Positions 2,564 through 9,797 of a stretch of 64,000 nucleotides of DNA are shown in pieces. The notes below the pieces were generated by a model. The model searched no databases and had not been told where the DNA came from. It saw only the letters and a program-made list of their open reading frames with translations. The DNA is from Bacteroidia bacterium. Lineage in GTDB: Bacteria; Bacteroidota; Bacteroidia; UKL13-3. The position numbers and the translations under genes are program-made. The stretch spans positions 1,239 through 65,238 of the forward strand of contig JAGVLJ010000017.1 in the NCBI GenBank assembly GCA_020049855.1. Direction: 5' to 3'. Positions within the stretch are counted from its first letter, which is position 1; each line of letters opens with the position of its first letter.

Positions 2564-5500
2564 ATGGAGAGTGTAGAAAAATATATTCCGAAGAACAAAA
2601 TCAGGGTAGTAACGGCTGCCAGTCTGTTTGATGGCCACGATGCTGCCATAAATATTATGCGCAGAATCATTCAAGCCAGTGGGGCCGAAGTGATTCACCT
2701 GGGCCACGACCGCAGTGCAGAAGAGGTAGTTAACTGTGCCATTCAGGAAGATGCCAATGCTATTGCCATGACCAGTTATCAGGGTGGACACGTGGAGTAT
2801 TTTAAATTTATGTACGACCTGCTGCAGCAGAAGGGCTGCGGCCATATTAAAATTTTTGGAGGGGGTGGTGGAACCATTCTGCCCGAAGAGATTGACGAGT
2901 TGCAGACTTACGGCATCACTCGAATTTACCATCCGGATGACGGCCGAGCCATGGGCTTGCAGGGAATGATTAACGACATGTTGCAAAAATGTGATTTTAA
3001 AACAGGGGAAAACCTGAACGGGGAAGCCAAACACCTCAAAGAAAAAGACTGGAAATCCATTGCCCGGTTAATCTCGGCAGCAGAAAATGACCCCAAAGGA
3101 TTTCAACCATTCTTAGATGCCATAAAAAAAGATGTGAAACCGGTACCAGTATTGGGAATAACCGGAACCGGTGGTGCAGGAAAATCATCGCTGGTTGATG
3201 AACTGGTGCGCAGGTTTTTGCTCGACTTCAAAACTAAAAGCATCGCCATCATTTCGGTCGATCCGAGTAAACGCAAAACAGGTGGTGCTTTGTTAGGAGA
3301 CCGTATCCGCATGAATGCGATTAAAAATCCACGGGTGTATATGCGTTCACTGGCAACACGACAAAGTAATCTGGCATTATCTAAACATGTGCAGGAAGCT
3401 ATTGATATTGTAAAAGCCGCGGCTTTTGATTTAATTATTCTCGAAACATCAGGTATCGGGCAAAGTGATACTGAAATTATGGATCACAGTGATGTGGCTT
3501 TGTATGTGATGACACCCGAATACGGAGCAGCTACTCAACTGGAAAAAATTGACATGCTTGATTTTGCCGACATCATTGCCATCAACAAATTTGATAAGAA
3601 GGGGGCGCAAGATGCCCTGCGTGACGTGAAAAAACAATATCAGCGCAATCACCAGCAGTTTGATAAATCGCCCGACAGCATGCCCGTGTACGGCACCATT
3701 GCCTCCCAGTTTAACGACCCCGGCATGAACCGCCTGTACAAAGCGGTTATGGATAAAGTGGTGGAGAAAACCAAGGCGGATCTCAAATCTACCTACGAGA
3801 TTACCGATGAGATGAGCGAAAAAATTTACATTATTCCTCCCTCACGCACCCGCTACCTTTCCGAAATTTCGGAGAATAACCGCAACTACGATAAATGGGT
3901 AAAAAAGCAATCTGAAATTGCGGATAAGCTTTACGGATTGAAATCATCCATCGATACATTGAAATCGTCAGCCATTGATGACAAAGAACGGTTGATAAAA
4001 GCATTAGATGAAACATACCATCAGGTTGCACTTGATTTGGATCCCCGCAACCGGAATATTCTGGAGACATGGGAACAGAAAAAAGATTTGTACCGAAATG
4101 AGTACTATGTGTTCAAAGTGCGCGATAAGGAAATCAAAATTAAAACACATACCGAATCTCTTTCGCATACGCAGGTTCCCAAGGTAGCGGTTCCAAAATT
4201 CAAAAGCTGGGGCGATATTTTACAATGGGCTTTGCAGGAAAATTTCCCCGGTGACTTTCCATACACAGCAGGTATCTATCCGTTTAAACGCGAAGGAGAA
4301 GACCCTACCCGTATGTTTGCCGGAGAAGGCGGACCGGAGCGCACTAATAAACGTTTTCACTACGTATCGAAGGGTATGCCTGCCAAACGCCTCAGCACGG
4401 CTTTTGATTCGGTAACACTCTATGGAAACGACCCGGATCATCGCCCCGATATTTACGGAAAGATTGGTAATTCGGGTGTGAGTGTATGGAGCTTAGAAGC
4501 TGCGAAAAAATTGTATTCCGGTTTTAACCTCGCTGATCCAAAAACTTCCGTCTCCATGACCATCAATGGGCCGGCTGCCATTATCTGTGCCTTCTTTATG
4601 AATGCCGCTATTGATCAGCAATGTGAATTATATATTAAAGAGCATGGCCTCGTGGATGAGGTGAATGCGAAGATTGATACACTATTTAAAAAGCGGGGCA
4701 CCACACGCCCAACCTACAATGAAACACTTCCTGAAACCAATGACGGATTAGGCCTGATGTTGCTGGGTGTAACCGGTGACATGGTATTGCCGGCAGACGT
4801 GTACAACAAAATAAAAGTGGAGACTTTAAAAAACGTACGTGGTACCGTGCAGGCGGATATATTAAAAGAAGACCAGGCCCAGAACACCTGTATCTTCTCT
4901 ACTGAGTTTTCATTACGCGTAATGGGTGATGTGCAGCAATATTTTATTGATAATGCCGTGCGTAATTTTTATTCCGTATCCATCAGCGGTTACCATATTG
5001 CCGAGGCAGGTGCCAACCCGATTACGCAATTGGCCTTAACGCTTTCCAACGGGTTCACCTTTGTTGAATACTATTTGAGCCGCGGAATGAACATTGATGA
5101 TTTTGCACCCAACCTGTCTTTCTTCTTCAGCAATGGCATTGACCCGGAATATTCGGTAATAGGCCGTGTATCGAGACGCATATGGGCCAAGGCGATGAAA
5201 CTCAAATACGGGGCCAACGTACGCTCACAAATGCTCAAATACCATATTCAAACTTCCGGTCGCTCGCTGCACGCACAGGAAATTGATTTCAACGATATAC
5301 GCACCACGCTGCAGGCCTTGTATGCCATTTACGATAATTGCAATTCACTTCACACCAATGCCTATGATGAGGCCATTACCACACCTACTGAAGAAAGTGT
5401 GCGCAGGGCCATGGCCATTCAGTTAATCATTAACCGCGAGTTGGGATTAGCCAAAAATGAAAATCCGTTACAGGGTTCTTTCATCATTGAAGAATTAACG

Positions 5501-5938
5501 GATTTGGTGGAAGAAGCCGTCCTGAGCGAGTTTGATAAAATCACTGAGCGGGGAGGAGTGCTGGGCGCCATGGAAACCATGTACCAGCGCAACAAGATAC
5601 AGGAAGAAAGTATGTACTACGAAATGCAGAAACATACTGGAGAATTCCCGATTATTGGGGTAAACACTTTCTTAAGCAGCAAAGGCTCGCCTACGGTATT
5701 GCCTAAGGAAGTTATCCGCTCCACCACCGAAGAAAAGGAATACCAGATTACCATGCTGAATGAATTGAAAAAAGGCAATGAGGCAAAAGGCAAAGAAATG
5801 TTGCTACGTTTACAAAAAGCCGCCATACACAACGAAAACCTTTTTGCCGAGCTGATGGAAACCGTAAAGTATTGCTCTCTGGGGCAAATTACACATGCCC
5901 TGTTTGAAGTGGGCGGGCAGTATAGGAGGAATATGTAG
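2564..5938 (+). CDS. icmF: Fused isobutyryl-CoA mutase (B12-binding domain, MeaB-like GTPase and methylmalonyl-CoA-mutase-type catalytic domain)
   Basis: 1124 aa. N-terminal B12-binding DxHxxG signature (DGHDAAIN), P-loop [12 protein letters not shown] of the MeaB/ArgK G-protein, and a long C-terminal acyl-CoA mutase domain. Confidence 0.8.
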
Positions 5939-6094
5939 CTCTATGGTTATTAAAGGTCGGCCTCAAATTCAACTGGAGCGTACATATTGCGCGTTATCAT
6001 TTGTTTCATAAAAGTATTAGCGTGCTGCCACTTGCTACAACTGACGATATATTTCCAGTTTGGCGGCTAAGTATATTTTGAAATCTGCATTCAC

Positions 6095-6256
6095 ATCCCC
6101 CTACCCCGTTAGCTTCGCTGAACCCTTCGGGTTTTGCTTTCCCGCCACCAGCCGCACAAGGGGGACAGATCCATTTCAAAAAGATTTTCGGTAAAGTGAG
6201 GTTCCAGTCCCCCTTGCAGCGAGGGCCTGAAGCGTGAGGGAAGGGGGTAGGGGGAT
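6095..6256. other. GC-rich nested inverted-repeat element (candidate structured RNA or palindromic repeat unit)
   Basis: Perfect 13-bp inverted repeat ATCCCCCTACCCC (6095-6107) / GGGGTAGGGGGAT (6244-6256). It encloses a perfect 10-bp inverted repeat CAAGGGGGAC (6157-6166) / GTCCCCCTTG (6207-6216) and a small hairpin AACCC-ttcg-GGGTT (6121-6133). Confidence 0.5.
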
Positions 6257-6355
6257 GAACTACGGATACCTGTGGCTTCATTGTACTTTATCTTTCACTA
6301 ATTAGGAAATGCGGCCGGATTTACCTAACCTTTGCATAATTAAAATAATAATCTT

Positions 6356-6802
6356 ATGATGTACATATCTATTTGCGTTACGCTGCTCACCATGATTGCA
6401 GCCATGCACCTGTTAGCAAAAACCAATAAAGAAGCCCTGGGCTCCCTTTTTAAGTGGGTTTCTTATGCAGTACTTATTGTGGCTTCGCTGTTGTTGCTTT
6501 GTCAGGTAACACGCGGGATTGCCAAAATGTGCTGCCATAAGGAATGCAAGGAAAAAAGTCATTGTGAAATGGGGAAAATGGGTGGACACAGGGGAATGAT
6601 GATGATGGAAAAAGAATGTCGCATGCACGGAGAAGAAGGATGCTGTGAAATGGAAAAGATGCACAAAAAAATGGGCAAAGGAGATTGCAGTTACATGAAG
6701 TGTGAAGAGGAAACAGAAAAATGCGGAGGCAAAATGAAATCGGGGATGGATCATCGGGAGATGAAACCCGATAGTGCCGCTGGCCACCATATGGGCAAAT
6801 AA
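6356..6802 (+). CDS. Small membrane-anchored Cys/Met/His-rich protein (putative metal-binding)
   Basis: 148 aa with two N-terminal hydrophobic helices followed by CCHKEC, M-rich (GMMMMEKEC), CC, CxxxC-like and HH motifs. The opposite-strand ORFs look like antisense artefacts of purine-rich codons. Confidence 0.55.
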   Translation: MMYISICVTLLTMIAAMHLLAKTNKEALGSLFKWVSYAVLIVASLLLLCQVTRGIAKMCCHKECKEKSHCEMGKMGGHRGMMMMEKECRMHGEEGCCEMEKMHKKMGKGDCSYMKCEEETEKCGGKMKSGMDHREMKPDSAAGHHMGK

Positions 6803-6968
6803 TTGTACGGCCACGTATGATGTAAATCAATTTCTCCTAGTTTTTATTTAAAACGGATACTCAAATGCCATGCACTCTGGTGCACCGGCAGTTGATTGCA
6901 AACTGAGGAAGATCATCGGTTTGATTCTTCAGTGACAGCGTACCTTTGACCAGATATTTTATGAAACA

Positions 6969-7466
6969 ATGAAACATATTTTAATAGCAGTTTGCATTTT
7001 ACTTTTTGGATTTAAAAGTTATGCGCAATACCCGTTGGCTAAAGGGCAAAAACAATTGAATGCTGGATTTGGGTTTTCGTCTTGGGGGCTTCCGGTTTAT
7101 GTTGGATTGGATTTTGGCGTACATAAAGATATTTCGGTAGGCGGAGAGTTTTCATTTCGTTCCTTCAGCGATAATTTTAAAGGGACAAGTTACAGCCACA
7201 CCATCATAGCGTTGGCGGCTAACGGAAATTATCACTTTAGCAGCCTGCTTAACATTCCAAAGGAGTGGGATGCCTATGCAGGACTGAATCTGGGATTTTA
7301 CAGTTGGAGTTCACCAACCGGATATAATGGCGGAGGCGGTTCAGGCATTGGCATGGGCGCGCAATTCGGGGGGCGTTATTATTTTAACACTAAATTTGCC
7401 GTCAATCTCGAATTGGACGGAGGCACTACTTCAGGCGGTAAGATTGGACTCACCATGAAGTTCTAA
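6969..7466 (+). CDS. Small outer-membrane beta-barrel protein (OmpW / porin-like family)
   Basis: Signal peptide MKHILIAVCILLFGFKSYAQ, Gly/aromatic-rich alternating pattern, C-terminal ...GLTMKF ending in Phe. Confidence 0.7.
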   Translation: MKHILIAVCILLFGFKSYAQYPLAKGQKQLNAGFGFSSWGLPVYVGLDFGVHKDISVGGEFSFRSFSDNFKGTSYSHTIIALAANGNYHFSSLLNIPKEWDAYAGLNLGFYSWSSPTGYNGGGGSGIGMGAQFGGRYYFNTKFAVNLELDGGTTSGGKIGLTMKF

Positions 7467-7543
7467 TTGCCGATTTAAACCCAGTTCGATAAACGGGGTA
7501 CTTACATTTCCCCGAAATTTTTTTGCAACAAACATTGGATACT

Positions 7544-8713
7544 CTAATCTTTGTTTAACGACACTTGTTTATATTTATCTTTATTTAGAACGGTCAATTC
7601 TAATACAGAATTTTGATTAAGGAGAGAAATCATTAAATTACAAAAATCATTTTTATTGATGTTTTCTGTAGCTGTATTGTTTATTTTAACTATTCTTTGT
7701 CCAACTCTAATTCCTTTCTTATATGCAATGCTGTTTTTCCAAACGAATGCAACCAAAATCTCATTCTGGTCATTAAGTTCCAAATTCAATCCAAATCTAA
7801 TTAAATCTTTTTCACCCTTAAAATCGTAAAGTGTTAAAAAAATAATGCTATCGGAAAAGTTAAATATCACATTATAATTTCTGAATAATGCAGATCCCAA
7901 TAATGGTTTGTCTTGAGAGCAGTAGGTTGGAATGCTTGTGATGAACTTATTCCCTAGCAATAATGTATCAACTAAAATTAGTGTTTGGTTGCCATTAATA
8001 ATTCCATTTACAGTCATAAACTTTTTTCCTATCCCATATGTTTTACTAACTTTTTTAAACTTTAACGACTGTTTTATTTTCTTTTCATTAATCACTAAAA
8101 AACCATTAAATCCCGTGTCAATTAACACATAAAAATCAATGCCTCCATATGCCACTCTTGCTAAAGGTAAATTGCCGTAATACTGTAACGGAACCTTTAT
8201 TGACATCCCTTCTTCTTTAAAGGGCTCTCTTGACCAATAGAGTGTGCCTGATTGTGAATTCATATTCCAATTTAAAAGATTAATAATATTAGCACCGATT
8301 ATACCATCAATCTTCACACATGTTTGCTTATTAAACTGATAAAGGTCAAGCTGAGTGCATTTTACTTCTCCAAATGCAGTATGACCAATTGTAAAATTTT
8401 CCAGAAAAATATTCGCGCTGTCAGGAATGCCATTAATACTTATTTTACCTATTTTGCCTGAAGTAGGTGTTATCTCATTAGAAATGACAGTTAATCCTGA
8501 TCCTGTATCAAACAAAAAATTATAGGCTATATTGTTAACGTAAACTTGTATTATCGGCAAATCGTTGTTATACTCAATTTGTGTTGAATCTGTTGTATTG
8601 AGACTTAAAATGGATGACTGAATAGTTTGTGCAAATAGAAGTCTACTTGACAATAATAGTAGAAAAAACGGAATGGGATATTTTGCCCTTACATAGCACA
8701 TAGTAACTATCAA
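7544..8713 (-). CDS. Secreted retropepsin-like aspartyl protease with two D-T/S-G lobes and a C-terminal PDZ domain
   Basis: Signal peptide, two catalytic-type motifs (FDTGSGLTVIS and LIDTGFNGFLVI), and a C-terminal PDZ-like segment (GIRVGQRIVKINNT...). Confidence 0.7.
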   Translation of the reverse strand: MIVTMCYVRAKYPIPFFLLLLSSRLLFAQTIQSSILSLNTTDSTQIEYNNDLPIIQVYVNNIAYNFLFDTGSGLTVISNEITPTSGKIGKISINGIPDSANIFLENFTIGHTAFGEVKCTQLDLYQFNKQTCVKIDGIIGANIINLLNWNMNSQSGTLYWSREPFKEEGMSIKVPLQYYGNLPLARVAYGGIDFYVLIDTGFNGFLVINEKKIKQSLKFKKVSKTYGIGKKFMTVNGIINGNQTLILVDTLLLGNKFITSIPTYCSQDKPLLGSALFRNYNVIFNFSDSIIFLTLYDFKGEKDLIRFGLNLELNDQNEILVAFVWKNSIAYKKGIRVGQRIVKINNTATENINKNDFCNLMISLLNQNSVLELTVLNKDKYKQVSLNKD

Positions 8714-9797
8714 TAAAGAATCTGAATTTACTGTAACTGTTATATTTTATCTAACTCGTTGTGCAAAGTTTGTTGAACTGTTGTCGTTTTAGGTCGAGCC
8801 TTTTTTGCTTGAGTTACCTTTGACGTGATGTTCAATTTTCGTTGCTCAAAAGAAAGAAATAATAAGTGAAAAAGCAAATCGGAATGATTCTGAATTACCG
8901 GCATTGCTCCATTGGATACAGGAATAACGAAATGCAATAAAAAATGTCTTGTTGATATTGTTACTTAGTTAGTCTTGCTATGCCCCTAATGTTCCTGCTG
9001 TGGCGGAATTAGATCCACTAACTTGTTGTGAGAGCGCATTCGTTTAGTAAAGCAACCGCTGTATGCGAGACCCGTACGTACAGTAGTGTGAGAGATGCAC
9101 CCTATTTATAAAACTCGGTAGAGCTGTCTTCTCGATTAGGGAATTTCCGTATAAACGTGGTCAAAATGGAATGGTGAAACGCTGAACCATTAGGGAAAAT
9201 GAGTAAAATAGAGCATGAAACAAAATCAGAGATTTTGGCACATGCGGTTTTCACCTCTGCCAGATGTGGCATGGTGCAAGTGGAGGGTCTGCATACCAAA
9301 AGGCTCTATGCAGCCACGTCAGGGTAGTACTCCCGCCTGCTAGGCAGCGAAAGCTAAATTTTCCCCGACTTGCGGATTGGTATCCAACATATGGCTGTTA
9401 AGTTTTTCTTATCGGGTCATCGTGTACCTGATTCTAAAAAATCTGTGAAACTTACGTATAAAGAAAGTTGGTAGAATAAAGCGGTAAAACATACGGAAGT
9501 ATTTCACATTTTCTACCTCGCTGGCATCAATCGGATGAGTTAGAAATTCCTAATTGATAGAGGAGCGTTTTTTGAAAGCATACCGCATGTCAGGAAATCA
9601 GGTTGGCCTATCTGTATTTCTAATGGATCCCTTCAGCGGAAAACTTTTTTAAGTAGTTTTTTCATATGTCTTAGTTACGTGACATTCGTGTTAGTACGTC
9701 CGCAGACTTACCCCTATTAGCCCTGTAGCGTGGGCTAATAGGGTACTCAGTATTGTTGTACCAAAGAATAAATGATTTTAAGTACTTCCTCCACAGC

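Follow-up and report, generated by a model that had tools for sequence, protein, structure and literature searches.

A previously unannotated Bacteroidota family of membrane-hairpin proteins with Cys/Met/His-rich tails, candidate membrane-tethered metal sponges

The window analysed here is a 64,000-nucleotide stretch of the genome of a Bacteroidia bacterium (UKL13-3; assembly GCA_020049855.1, contig JAGVLJ010000017.1, positions 1,239 to 65,238 of the forward strand), and our subject is a small gene on its plus strand, an open reading frame (ORF) that opens with ATG and, by the ORF listing and the raw sequence, encodes 148 amino acids plus a stop at positions 6356-6802. A preliminary description made from the letters alone had seen two hydrophobic helices ahead of a roughly 90-residue tail dense in Cys, Met and His. 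Both parts were recovered, as hydrophobic segments at residues ~3-20 and 35-52 and a tail of 92 residues, together with every motif it had quoted: CCHKEC (59-64), HCEMGKMGGH (69-78), GMMMMEKECRMHGEEGCCEMEKMH (80-103), CSYMKCEEETEKCGG (111-125) and HH (144-145). The tail (residues 57-148) contains 16 Met, 10 Cys, 8 His, 16 Lys, 14 Glu and 13 Gly, with Cys, Met and His making up 37% of its residues (Cys ~11%, Met 17%, His 9%). Close to the membrane lies RGIAKMCCH, and further features are HxxM at 69, 78, 103 and 133, MxxH at 58 and 75 and a run of four Met at 81-84. The Cys residues stand as CC pairs (59-60 and 96-97) or singly (64, 70, 88, 111, 116 and 123). When all six frames of the window were scanned for stop-free stretches of 40 amino acids with at least 33% Cys+Met+His and at least 4 Cys, such stretches were found only in this ORF, and no paralog of its protein was detected within the 64 kb. 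The features of the gene are collected in Table 1.

Table 1. Features of the hairpin-protein gene and its upstream region, in window coordinates
Feature	Position	Strand	Basis and reading
Complete ORF, small protein with two transmembrane (TM) helices and a Cys/Met/His-rich tail	6356..6802	+	ORF listing, codon-position differences, full-length family matches
TM helix 1, ~residues 3-20	6362..6415	+	Hydropathy; AlphaFold helix 2-25 (predicted local distance difference test, pLDDT, ~80); probably N-out to C-in
Short basic loop KTNKEALGSLFKW, residues 22-34	6419..6457	+	Near-invariant columns, charge count; probably cytoplasmic
TM helix 2, ~residues 35-52	6458..6511	+	Hydropathy; AlphaFold helix 30-63 (pLDDT 84-88); probable uncleaved signal-anchor exporting the tail
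Tail, residues 53-148	6512..6799	+	Composition, pLDDT, Cys/Met/His conservation, motif statistics; predicted disordered, probably periplasmic
D139-S140, degenerate trace of the 'KD[ST]' motif that the family has near its C-terminus	6770..6775	+	D139 nearly invariant in a 61-sequence alignment
Conserved upstream block TAGGAAAT...ATTTACCTAACCTTTGCATAA	6303..6355	+	Upstream alignment of six relatives

Comparison with a 91%-identical homolog (L008) revealed 6, 7 and 30 differences at codon positions 1, 2 and 3 of the plus frame, and in the TM region there were 5 synonymous changes and 0 non-synonymous ones. Since the substitutions are concentrated at the third codon position, the plus frame is coding, and the ORF is a real gene under purifying selection. 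The preliminary description had named a minus-strand frame rich in His and Phe (6413-6814) as the possible translated one. That frame is a mirror of the ATG/AAA/GAA-rich plus strand (CAT reading as His, TTT/TTC as Phe); it is not open throughout in one homolog (L007) and is shifted in two others (L009 and L010), so that the conserved frame is the plus frame. The homologs were also found to retain the Cys/Met positions.

We then asked what family the protein belongs to. Pfam and NCBIfam scans (E ≤ 1) returned only sub-threshold TM look-alikes (TMEM52, DUF2768, SieB and MIGRI), which bears out the earlier remark that no family could be named for it. No description emerged from full-text literature searches on the family itself, on DUF4890/DUF4834 or on bacterial metallothioneins anchored in the membrane, and the public copies are uniformly annotated 'hypothetical protein'. 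A single-sequence, word-indexed protein search retrieved the identical protein and two relatives at ~60% identity (3 clusters), and an exhaustive HMMER profile search retrieved 232 cluster representatives at E ≤ 1e-3 (59 at E ≤ 1e-10), each standing for a cluster at 50% identity and still phylogenetically related to the others. The label 'novel' is therefore right as regards a named family, but the protein is no orphan, having at least 232 cluster representatives in Bacteroidota. Members have ~100-180 residues, and their matches cover the whole chain, residue 1 to C-terminus. All of these relatives derive from metagenome-assembled genomes (MAGs) or metagenomes, and a search of a species-representative genome collection with a 10-sequence alignment gave 18 loci, all in Bacteroidota MAGs (Bacteroidales, Flavobacteriales, Marinifilum, Prolixibacteraceae and Vicingaceae).

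Conservation within the family is highest in the loop motif LLAK[TS][KN]K[ED]xLGxFFKW, in which L19, L20, A21, K22, K25 and L28 are invariant or near-invariant across orders. The window protein fits the common layout of a two-TM hairpin with the loop motif LLAK[TS][KN]K[ED]xLGxxFK followed by a variable module, and we refer to this previously unannotated group as the Bacteroidota 'LLAKTKKE-hairpin' family. Relative to L009, non-synonymous differences fall in 13 of 57 anchor codons and in 43 of 87 tail codons. The single Cys of TM1 in the window protein, Cys7, is not conserved. Many members (among them P0156, P0160-P0169, P0035, P0100 and P0145) end in KKD[ST][VI][VI][IV]KK(K), in some cases repeated as ...EKKVIIK, and xD[ST] occurs within the last 30 residues of 73 of 112 tails. 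This C-terminal motif is amphipathic and Cys-free and has a beta-strand-like look; in the window protein it is degenerate, the chain closing with ...KPDSAAGHHMGK.

Across the family the tail varies in sequence and is constant in composition. In statistics that rest on a heuristic parse of the boundary between TM2 and tail, the pooled tails contained 12.9% Gly, 11.7% Lys, 11.4% Met, 10.5% Glu, 9.2% Cys and 6.6% His, and the per-tail medians were 8 Cys, 10 Met and 6 His. A common order was also apparent: a membrane-adjacent Arg-rich stretch, often with CC, is followed by a Met/His/Gly block, a Cys/Lys/Glu/Gly block and a Cys-poor Lys/Glu/Asp end that carries 'KD[ST]', often as KKD[ST]VIVKK, and the window protein follows this order. 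Position by position, a comparison of the three closest sequences showed conservation at 8 of the 10 Cys in the tail and at 18 of 81 other residues (Fisher p = 5e-4); for Cys, Met and His together it was 17 of 34, compared with 9 of 57 (p = 7e-4). In a clade of seven sequences the invariant tail positions were exclusively Cys, Met or His (6/34 vs 0/57; p = 0.002). As alignments within low-complexity tails are uncertain, these positional tests are indicative only.

To this composition the family adds a spacing pattern. Motif counts in 112-114 Cys-type tails, set against composition-preserving shuffles, showed strong enrichment of HxxM (150 observed, 68 expected; z = +10.7) and MxxH (128 observed, 68 expected; z = +7.9), along with CC (z = +7.4), MM and MMM (z = +7.3 and +10), HH (z = +4.9), DDD (z = +13) and GM (z = +7.4). 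Depleted were CxC (14 observed, 97 expected; z = -9.5), CxxC (25 observed, 95 expected; z = -7.7) and MxxM (z = -6.8). Shuffling within blocks of 15 residues, which keeps the local composition, gave the same picture (HxxM +9.2, MxxH +6.9). Distances between Cys residues peak at 1 and at 6-7 and are nearly absent at 2-3, and the window protein itself has no CxC and no CxxC. The number of Cys per tail was even in 56 tails and odd in 58, and because there is no bias toward even counts a fixed disulfide-bonded fold is unlikely; with CxC and CxxC so scarce, intramolecular disulfides would be disfavoured in an oxidising compartment. The Cys/Met/His content, as judged from these comparisons, is thus selected and family-wide and no noise. 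The preliminary description had called the tail typical both of Cu(I)/Ag(I)-binding periplasmic proteins and of metallothionein-like buffers: the enriched HxxM and MxxH agree with the first of these, and the second does not hold for the Cys pattern, as CxC and CxxC are depleted. Heme c attachment (CxxCH) and Fe-S binding were set aside for the same reason, CxxC being depleted family-wide and absent from the window protein.

On which side of the membrane would such a tail lie? In the family mean, the N-terminal flank (~2 uncharged residues) carries 0.1 Lys+Arg and the 13-residue loop carries 3.3. By the positive-inside rule a basic loop is cytoplasmic, in which case TM1 would run N-out to C-in and TM2 would act like an uncleaved signal-anchor. 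A lipoprotein or a cleavable signal peptide was considered and rejected, since there is no basic n-region, the non-conserved Cys7 lies too near the N-terminus and no consistent AxA follows TM2.

Further evidence on topology came from sibling proteins that share the anchor. In one type (P0112, P0117, P0153-155, P0164, P0176 and P0097) the hairpin is followed by a His-rich linker and a domain with two LTxxQ motifs. P0117 matches PF07813 (LTXXQ) at 25.7 bits (gathering cut-off 24.3), precomputed matches of these siblings are to PF16231/PF07813, and some bear the Joint Genome Institute (JGI) name 'Spy/CpxP family protein refolding chaperone'. Where such siblings are Cys-free, the His-rich linker stands in place of the tail. 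In a second, composite type (P0159, P0166, P0170 and P0178), TM2 is followed in the same chain by a Cys/Met-rich segment and an LTxxQ domain with no further TM helix between or after them. The LTxxQ domains of the two types align at 30-61% identity and share invariant L, Q, K, I, E, K, L, P and Q residues. A profile of the domain, run against the PDB, matched the periplasmic chaperone Spy best (3oeo, 3o39 and 5wnw, E ~0.003) and CpxP next, and in the Spy/CpxP alignment both LTxxQ motifs pair (LNLTDAQKQQIREIM and NILTPEQKKQFN). For the composites, the assignment consists of their alignment to clear LTXXQ siblings together with weak profile matches to Spy/CpxP. An AlphaFold model of P0159 gave a confident helical C-terminal domain and a disordered Cys/Met segment. 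The charge distribution, taken with the Spy/CpxP/ZraP-like siblings on the same anchor, indicates that the tail is likely to be on the periplasmic side.

The tail of the window protein is likewise predicted to be disordered. AlphaFold, run with a 22-sequence alignment, modelled the hairpin confidently as helices 2-25 and 30-63 (pLDDT 72-88) and left residues 67-148 at pLDDT 31-39 with no secondary structure.

A few loci place metal-related genes beside family members. Next to P0153, a Spy-type sibling with a His-rich linker (JGI 3300050821), lies a divergent cation diffusion facilitator exporter (Cation_efflux/ZT_dimer), with a MarR regulator near by; the composite P0178 (L033, noted together with P0153) is adjoined by a divergent fragment of a VIT1-family Fe/Mn transporter, and each of the two is a single case. 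Approximately 0.8 kb downstream of P0002, a 59% homolog, an MbnP gene and an MbnH-like gene (CCP_MauG di-haem peroxidase) are found on the opposite strand (L001, 9225-10989; also in L002 and L003), a pair that is a copper-associated periplasmic system and that the window lacks at the equivalent position.

Taken together, these observations suggest to us, with about even confidence, that the protein is an inner-membrane-tethered, disordered periplasmic sponge or chaperone for soft metals. The two-helix hairpin, with its N-terminus out and its basic KTNKE loop in the cytoplasm, would tether a tail of ~95 residues at the periplasmic face of the membrane. This disordered, highly charged, Cys/Met/His/Gly-rich tail would bind several soft metal ions, Cu(I) most likely and possibly Ag(I), Zn(II), Cd(II) or Hg(II). 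The ligands would be His/Met pairs at i,i+3 (HxxM/MxxH) and the thiolates of CC pairs and of single Cys residues ~6-7 apart, the added thiolates raising the affinity for Cu(I), Ag(I), Hg(II) or Cd(II), and the tail would probably fold or compact upon metal binding. The protein may thereby serve as a membrane-proximal periplasmic metal buffer or chaperone in envelope defence against metal stress.

Several points weigh against this proposal. Free thiols are unusual in the oxidising periplasm. The depletion of CxC, CxxC and MxxM makes for a chemistry unlike that of known metallothioneins or Met-motif proteins, and codon slippage within low-complexity sequence could account in part for runs such as MMM, HH, DDD and CC, although it cannot explain the depletion of CxC, CxxC and MxxM or the enrichment of HxxM and MxxH. 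The hairpin is better conserved than the tail, which suggests that the anchor is more than a tether. Regarding topology, the first 15 residues of the tail average 2.7 Lys+Arg, so that the charge argument alone is not decisive. The kinship of the siblings to Spy has its own weaknesses: the per-domain E-values of the LTxxQ profile to Spy are ~2, a Pfam scan found no LTXXQ in the composites P0159, P0170 and P0178, and a Foldseek search of the full-length P0159 model against the PDB returned no match below E = 0.5. Genomic context is also unhelpful, as no neighbour is conserved across divergent family loci (~28 loci), the gene has neither a metal-resistance gene nor a metal regulator next to it in the window, and the three metal-transporter adjacencies among the ~28 loci could be chance.

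Comparison with characterised metal binders helps to place the tail. SilE is a disordered periplasmic 'molecular sponge' whose HxxM and MxxH motifs have been shown by experiment to be Ag(I)-binding units and which folds on 6-8 Ag(I) (PMC5008109, PMC11904771), and PcoE is its Cu(I) counterpart, proposed to keep copper buffered until the induction of efflux (PMC7558416). Both apo-SilE/PcoE and metallothioneins are unstructured and fold upon metal binding (PMC5008109, PMC7558416). Like SilE and PcoE, for each of which a role as first-line metal buffer has been proposed (PMC7558416), the window protein is small, without a folded apo structure in prediction, Met/His-rich and furnished with repeated HxxM/MxxH, on what is probably the same, periplasmic side. 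It differs from them in having no sequence homology detectable by Pfam or NCBIfam, in being hairpin-tethered with no secreted signal-peptide form, in its 10 Cys including CC pairs, in the lack of a sil, pco or cus operon among the ~28 loci, and in its restriction to Bacteroidota.

A second resemblance is to the CpxP family, whose periplasmic members ZraP and Spy bind Zn and bring down the level of free metal in the periplasm (PMC9175090). The deposited sequence of Salmonella ZraP (3LAY) has a Gly/Met/His/Cys tail, GAGMGYGGCGGYGGGYHRGGGHMGMGNW, beside its LTxxQ core, and because ZraP thus joins such a core to such a tail, as the composite siblings do, we see a likeness in logic between them. 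The siblings on the shared anchor carry a two-LTxxQ helical domain with Spy and CpxP as its best PDB matches; the window protein itself has neither an LTxxQ motif nor a PF07813 match, its tail is ~95 residues long compared with ~30 in ZraP, and unlike ZraP it is membrane-anchored and has no ZraSR-like two-component system alongside.

Cys-based systems are more distant. With metallothioneins (SmtA/BmtA, MymT) the window protein shares small size, richness in Cys with multiple thiolates and the expected lack of structure without metal (PMC7558416), but CxC and CxxC are almost absent from its family (14 and 25 vs ~96 expected), it is membrane-anchored and probably periplasmic, and no Pfam or NCBIfam match to metallothionein families was found. 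Csp1 is a Tat-exported (twin-arginine translocation) periplasmic Cys-based Cu(I) store, a pre-folded four-helix bundle with a Cys-lined core (PMC7558416), whereas the window tail has no predicted helices, no family match and no Tat signal. The Cu chaperone CupA of Streptococcus is a precedent for anchoring a Cu(I)-binding domain, liganded by Cys and Met, in the cytoplasmic membrane (PMC7558416). It has a folded cupredoxin-like beta-barrel, a single TM helix, an orientation toward the cytoplasm and a place in the cop operon, none of which applies to the window protein. MerT, MerF and MerC are small proteins with at least two TM helices and an important vicinal Cys pair within TM1. The present family resembles them in being small membrane proteins enriched in CC pairs and differs in having no Pfam/NCBIfam match, in the place of those pairs (59-60 and 96-97, after TM2, in the window protein) and in the absence of a mer operon. 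By analogy, the protein would be a functional relative of SilE/PcoE and of the ZraP tail, but it is a member of neither group, set apart by its tether, its cysteines and their spacing grammar.

Alternatively, and in our judgement somewhat unlikely, the protein may be a sensor or accessory module that resembles ZraP, CpxP and MgrB in modulating a kinase, a role that would be compatible with metal binding. The conserved hairpin and its KTKKE-LG-FFKW loop would dock on a partner in the membrane or the cytoplasm, for example a sensor kinase or transporter, and the tail would report on metal or redox state. This would account for an anchor so much better conserved than the tail, with loop residues held fixed across orders, and for the way a single anchor carries interchangeable modules (the Cys/Met/His tail, the His-rich linker with a Spy/CpxP-like domain, or both). 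CpxP and ZraP are themselves described (PMC6737893, PMC9175090) as accessory regulators of two-component systems, and two-component genes lie near the gene in several loci. However, those nearby proteins have unrelated architectures and cluster via shared generic domains only, no specific partner gene is conserved alongside the family, and the conservation of the loop could reflect the needs of insertion or topology alone.

A bolder version of this idea, which we consider plainly unlikely, casts the hairpin as more than a passive anchor. It would be the transducing or docking module common to a hitherto undescribed stress system of the envelope, specific to Bacteroidota, in which the periplasmic heads (a Cys/Met/His tail, a His-rich linker, a Spy/CpxP-like domain or combinations of these) are interchangeable. 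At the membrane surface such heads would detect soft metals or misfolded proteins and pass the signal across the membrane, making each protein a tethered, single-polypeptide counterpart of the accessory logic of CpxP-CpxA and ZraP-ZraS, and the CC pairs set 6-7 apart together with the avoidance of CxxC would keep periplasmic Cys reduced and available to metal.

The opposite topology, with the N-terminus and tail in the cytoplasm, would turn the protein into a membrane-anchored, metallothionein-like thiol buffer for Cu(I), Zn and Cd, and we hold it to be quite improbable. Cys-rich metal buffers are typically cytoplasmic (metallothioneins, Csp3; PMC7558416), the start of the tail is about as basic as the loop, and exporting a ~95-residue tail that is ~40% charged would be demanding. 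Yet the uncharged N-terminal flank and the loop, with its 3.3 Lys+Arg in 13 residues, put the loop in the cytoplasm by the positive-inside rule; the composites hold the Cys/Met segment in one chain with a Spy/CpxP-like domain, whose characterised members are periplasmic; Met/His motifs of the HxxM kind are typical of periplasmic binders (PMC5008109); and CxC/CxxC, the hallmark of cytoplasmic metallothioneins, is depleted.

Very unlikely, in our view, is a redox or oxidant sink, in which sacrificial Met and Cys would be oxidised by hypochlorous acid, reactive oxygen species or polysulfide, or in which the tail would act as an intermolecular disulfide cross-linker. Met is indeed abundant (16/92) alongside Cys, the tail is modelled as disordered and would be exposed to solvent, the CC pairs and CxxC avoidance would disfavour intramolecular disulfides and leave thiols reactive, and an ArsC/Spx-family thiol protein gene lies near by in the close clade. 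But this leaves the enrichment of His-Met pairs at i,i+3 and the selective conservation of His unexplained, the Cys-free siblings with His-rich linkers point to metal ligands and not to redox chemistry, and no msr or dsb gene is linked. Finally, the idea that the region is purine-rich non-coding DNA open by chance, or that the true gene is the minus-strand frame, could appeal to strong skew (GC skew 0.3-0.4, AT skew 0.19-0.30) and to long open frames on both strands, but it is effectively refuted by the third-position-dominated changes with no non-synonymous TM change relative to L008, by the 232 full-length relatives and by the broken or shifted minus frame in homologs.

We also examined the surroundings of the gene, which looks monocistronic. 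A 1,124-residue IcmF-like protein with a fused B12-binding/MeaB G-protein/methylmalonyl-CoA-mutase architecture is encoded upstream (2564-5938, plus strand), and the hairpin gene lies 417 nt downstream of this fused B12 mutase/MeaB gene. The adjacency is confined to the closest clade, with differing genes inserted between the two, and a functional linkage to IcmF was accordingly discarded in favour of residual synteny. The conserved block immediately before the gene (Table 1), which we take from the upstream alignment to be its putative own promoter and short leader, includes TAACCTTTG (6326-6334), 21 nt before the ATG, a near-match to TAnnTTTG, the -7 promoter box of Bacteroidota. Promoter and terminator scans for sigma-70 gave weak consensus matches only, and the sigma-70 consensus is not applicable to Bacteroidota.

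Between the IcmF-like gene and the hairpin gene the window also holds a nested palindrome (6094-6257), whose 17-nt arms, CATCCCCCTACCCCGTT and AAGGGGGTAGGGGGATG, are 94% complementary and 130 nt apart, with a perfect inner pair of 10 nt (6157-6166 and 6207-6216). Its right arm is present in the 91% relative L008 and not in L009, L010, L007 or L011, and it looks like a lineage-specific inserted repeat akin to miniature inverted-repeat transposable elements or repetitive extragenic palindromes. A role in regulating the family was rejected because the palindrome occurs only in the window and that relative. An Rfam search of 5850-7000 (E ≤ 1) gave no match, and thus no riboswitch, leader RNA or palindrome family was found there. 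In the corresponding interval just downstream of the IcmF-like gene, L001/L009 (6211-7858) carry an AAA_15/AAA_21 ATPase and DUF3226 pair with the look of a defence cassette, and L010 and L011 carry other small ORFs; the site may be an integration hotspot.

Downstream, a gene for a 165-residue protein resembling outer-membrane proteins (OMP) is followed by an opposite-strand Asp-protease/PDZ gene (7544-8713). Within the flanks examined there is, as the preliminary description had stated, no adjacent efflux pump, P-type ATPase or regulator. Its 'porin-like' label for the first neighbour corresponds to an OMP_b-brl match that is sub-threshold (E = 0.003, 18.2 bits; cut-off 28.7). The OMP-like gene, protease and palindrome that it listed are all present, but they came in by lineage-specific insertion and have no connection with the family. 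GC content is 27-33% in the protease gene, compared with 42-47% in the flanks, and in L007 an ArsC-family gene directly follows the homolog, while in the window the ArsC-family gene stands 3 kb farther away. For these two reasons the ~3-kb block at 6803-9797 (OMP-like gene, protease and a gene-free stretch) appears to be an insertion, probably acquired horizontally. Processing of the hairpin protein by the neighbouring protease, as the precursor of a bacteriocin or other ribosomally synthesised and post-translationally modified peptide, was dismissed on the same basis, as the low-GC, lineage-specific insertion with the protease and OMP-like genes is absent from L007 and from all divergent loci. 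The gene-free gap (8714-9797) contained no tRNA that we could find. At 9054-9136 on its plus strand there is a sub-threshold match to RF00029, the model of the group II intron catalytic domain (24.7 bits, gathering 40; E = 0.023), that spans the full model (1-77) and may be what is left of such an intron, either degenerate or lacking its ORF.

At the divergent loci the neighbours are two-component proteins, glycoside hydrolase family 3 (GH3), M16 peptidase, TrkH, SSF, BON-domain and Mrp/NifU proteins, and proteins with type IX secretion tails. Recurrent neighbours of ~1,050 and ~350 residues, considered as a possible resistance-nodulation-division efflux pump, proved by Pfam to be generic histidine-kinase, response-regulator and cyclase proteins grouped by a single-linkage artefact.

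The handling of metals in the envelope of Bacteroidota is poorly charted compared with that of Proteobacteria, and the classic buffers of the periplasm, SilE/PcoE, CusF and ZraP, were all defined in enterobacteria. Here, an unannotated family of at least 232 clusters joins SilE-type His/Met motifs and CC pairs to a conserved hairpin that is shared with Spy/CpxP/ZraP-like proteins. That a Met/His/Cys-rich protein should bind metal is, as a general idea, unsurprising; it is the family, its modular anchor and its thiol pattern that are worth testing. The unusual cysteine spacing of the family, in which CC and C-x5-6-C occur and CxC and CxxC almost never do, could help to explain how extracytoplasmic thiol ligands stay functional, and a compact, tethered metal-binding tail may suit surface-display bioremediation. 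Should the tail indeed bind metal, the protein would be the first periplasmic metal sponge to combine a membrane tether with cysteines, and it would offer a testable entry into how the Bacteroidia of freshwater, sediment and soil cope with Cu, Ag, Zn, Cd and Hg.

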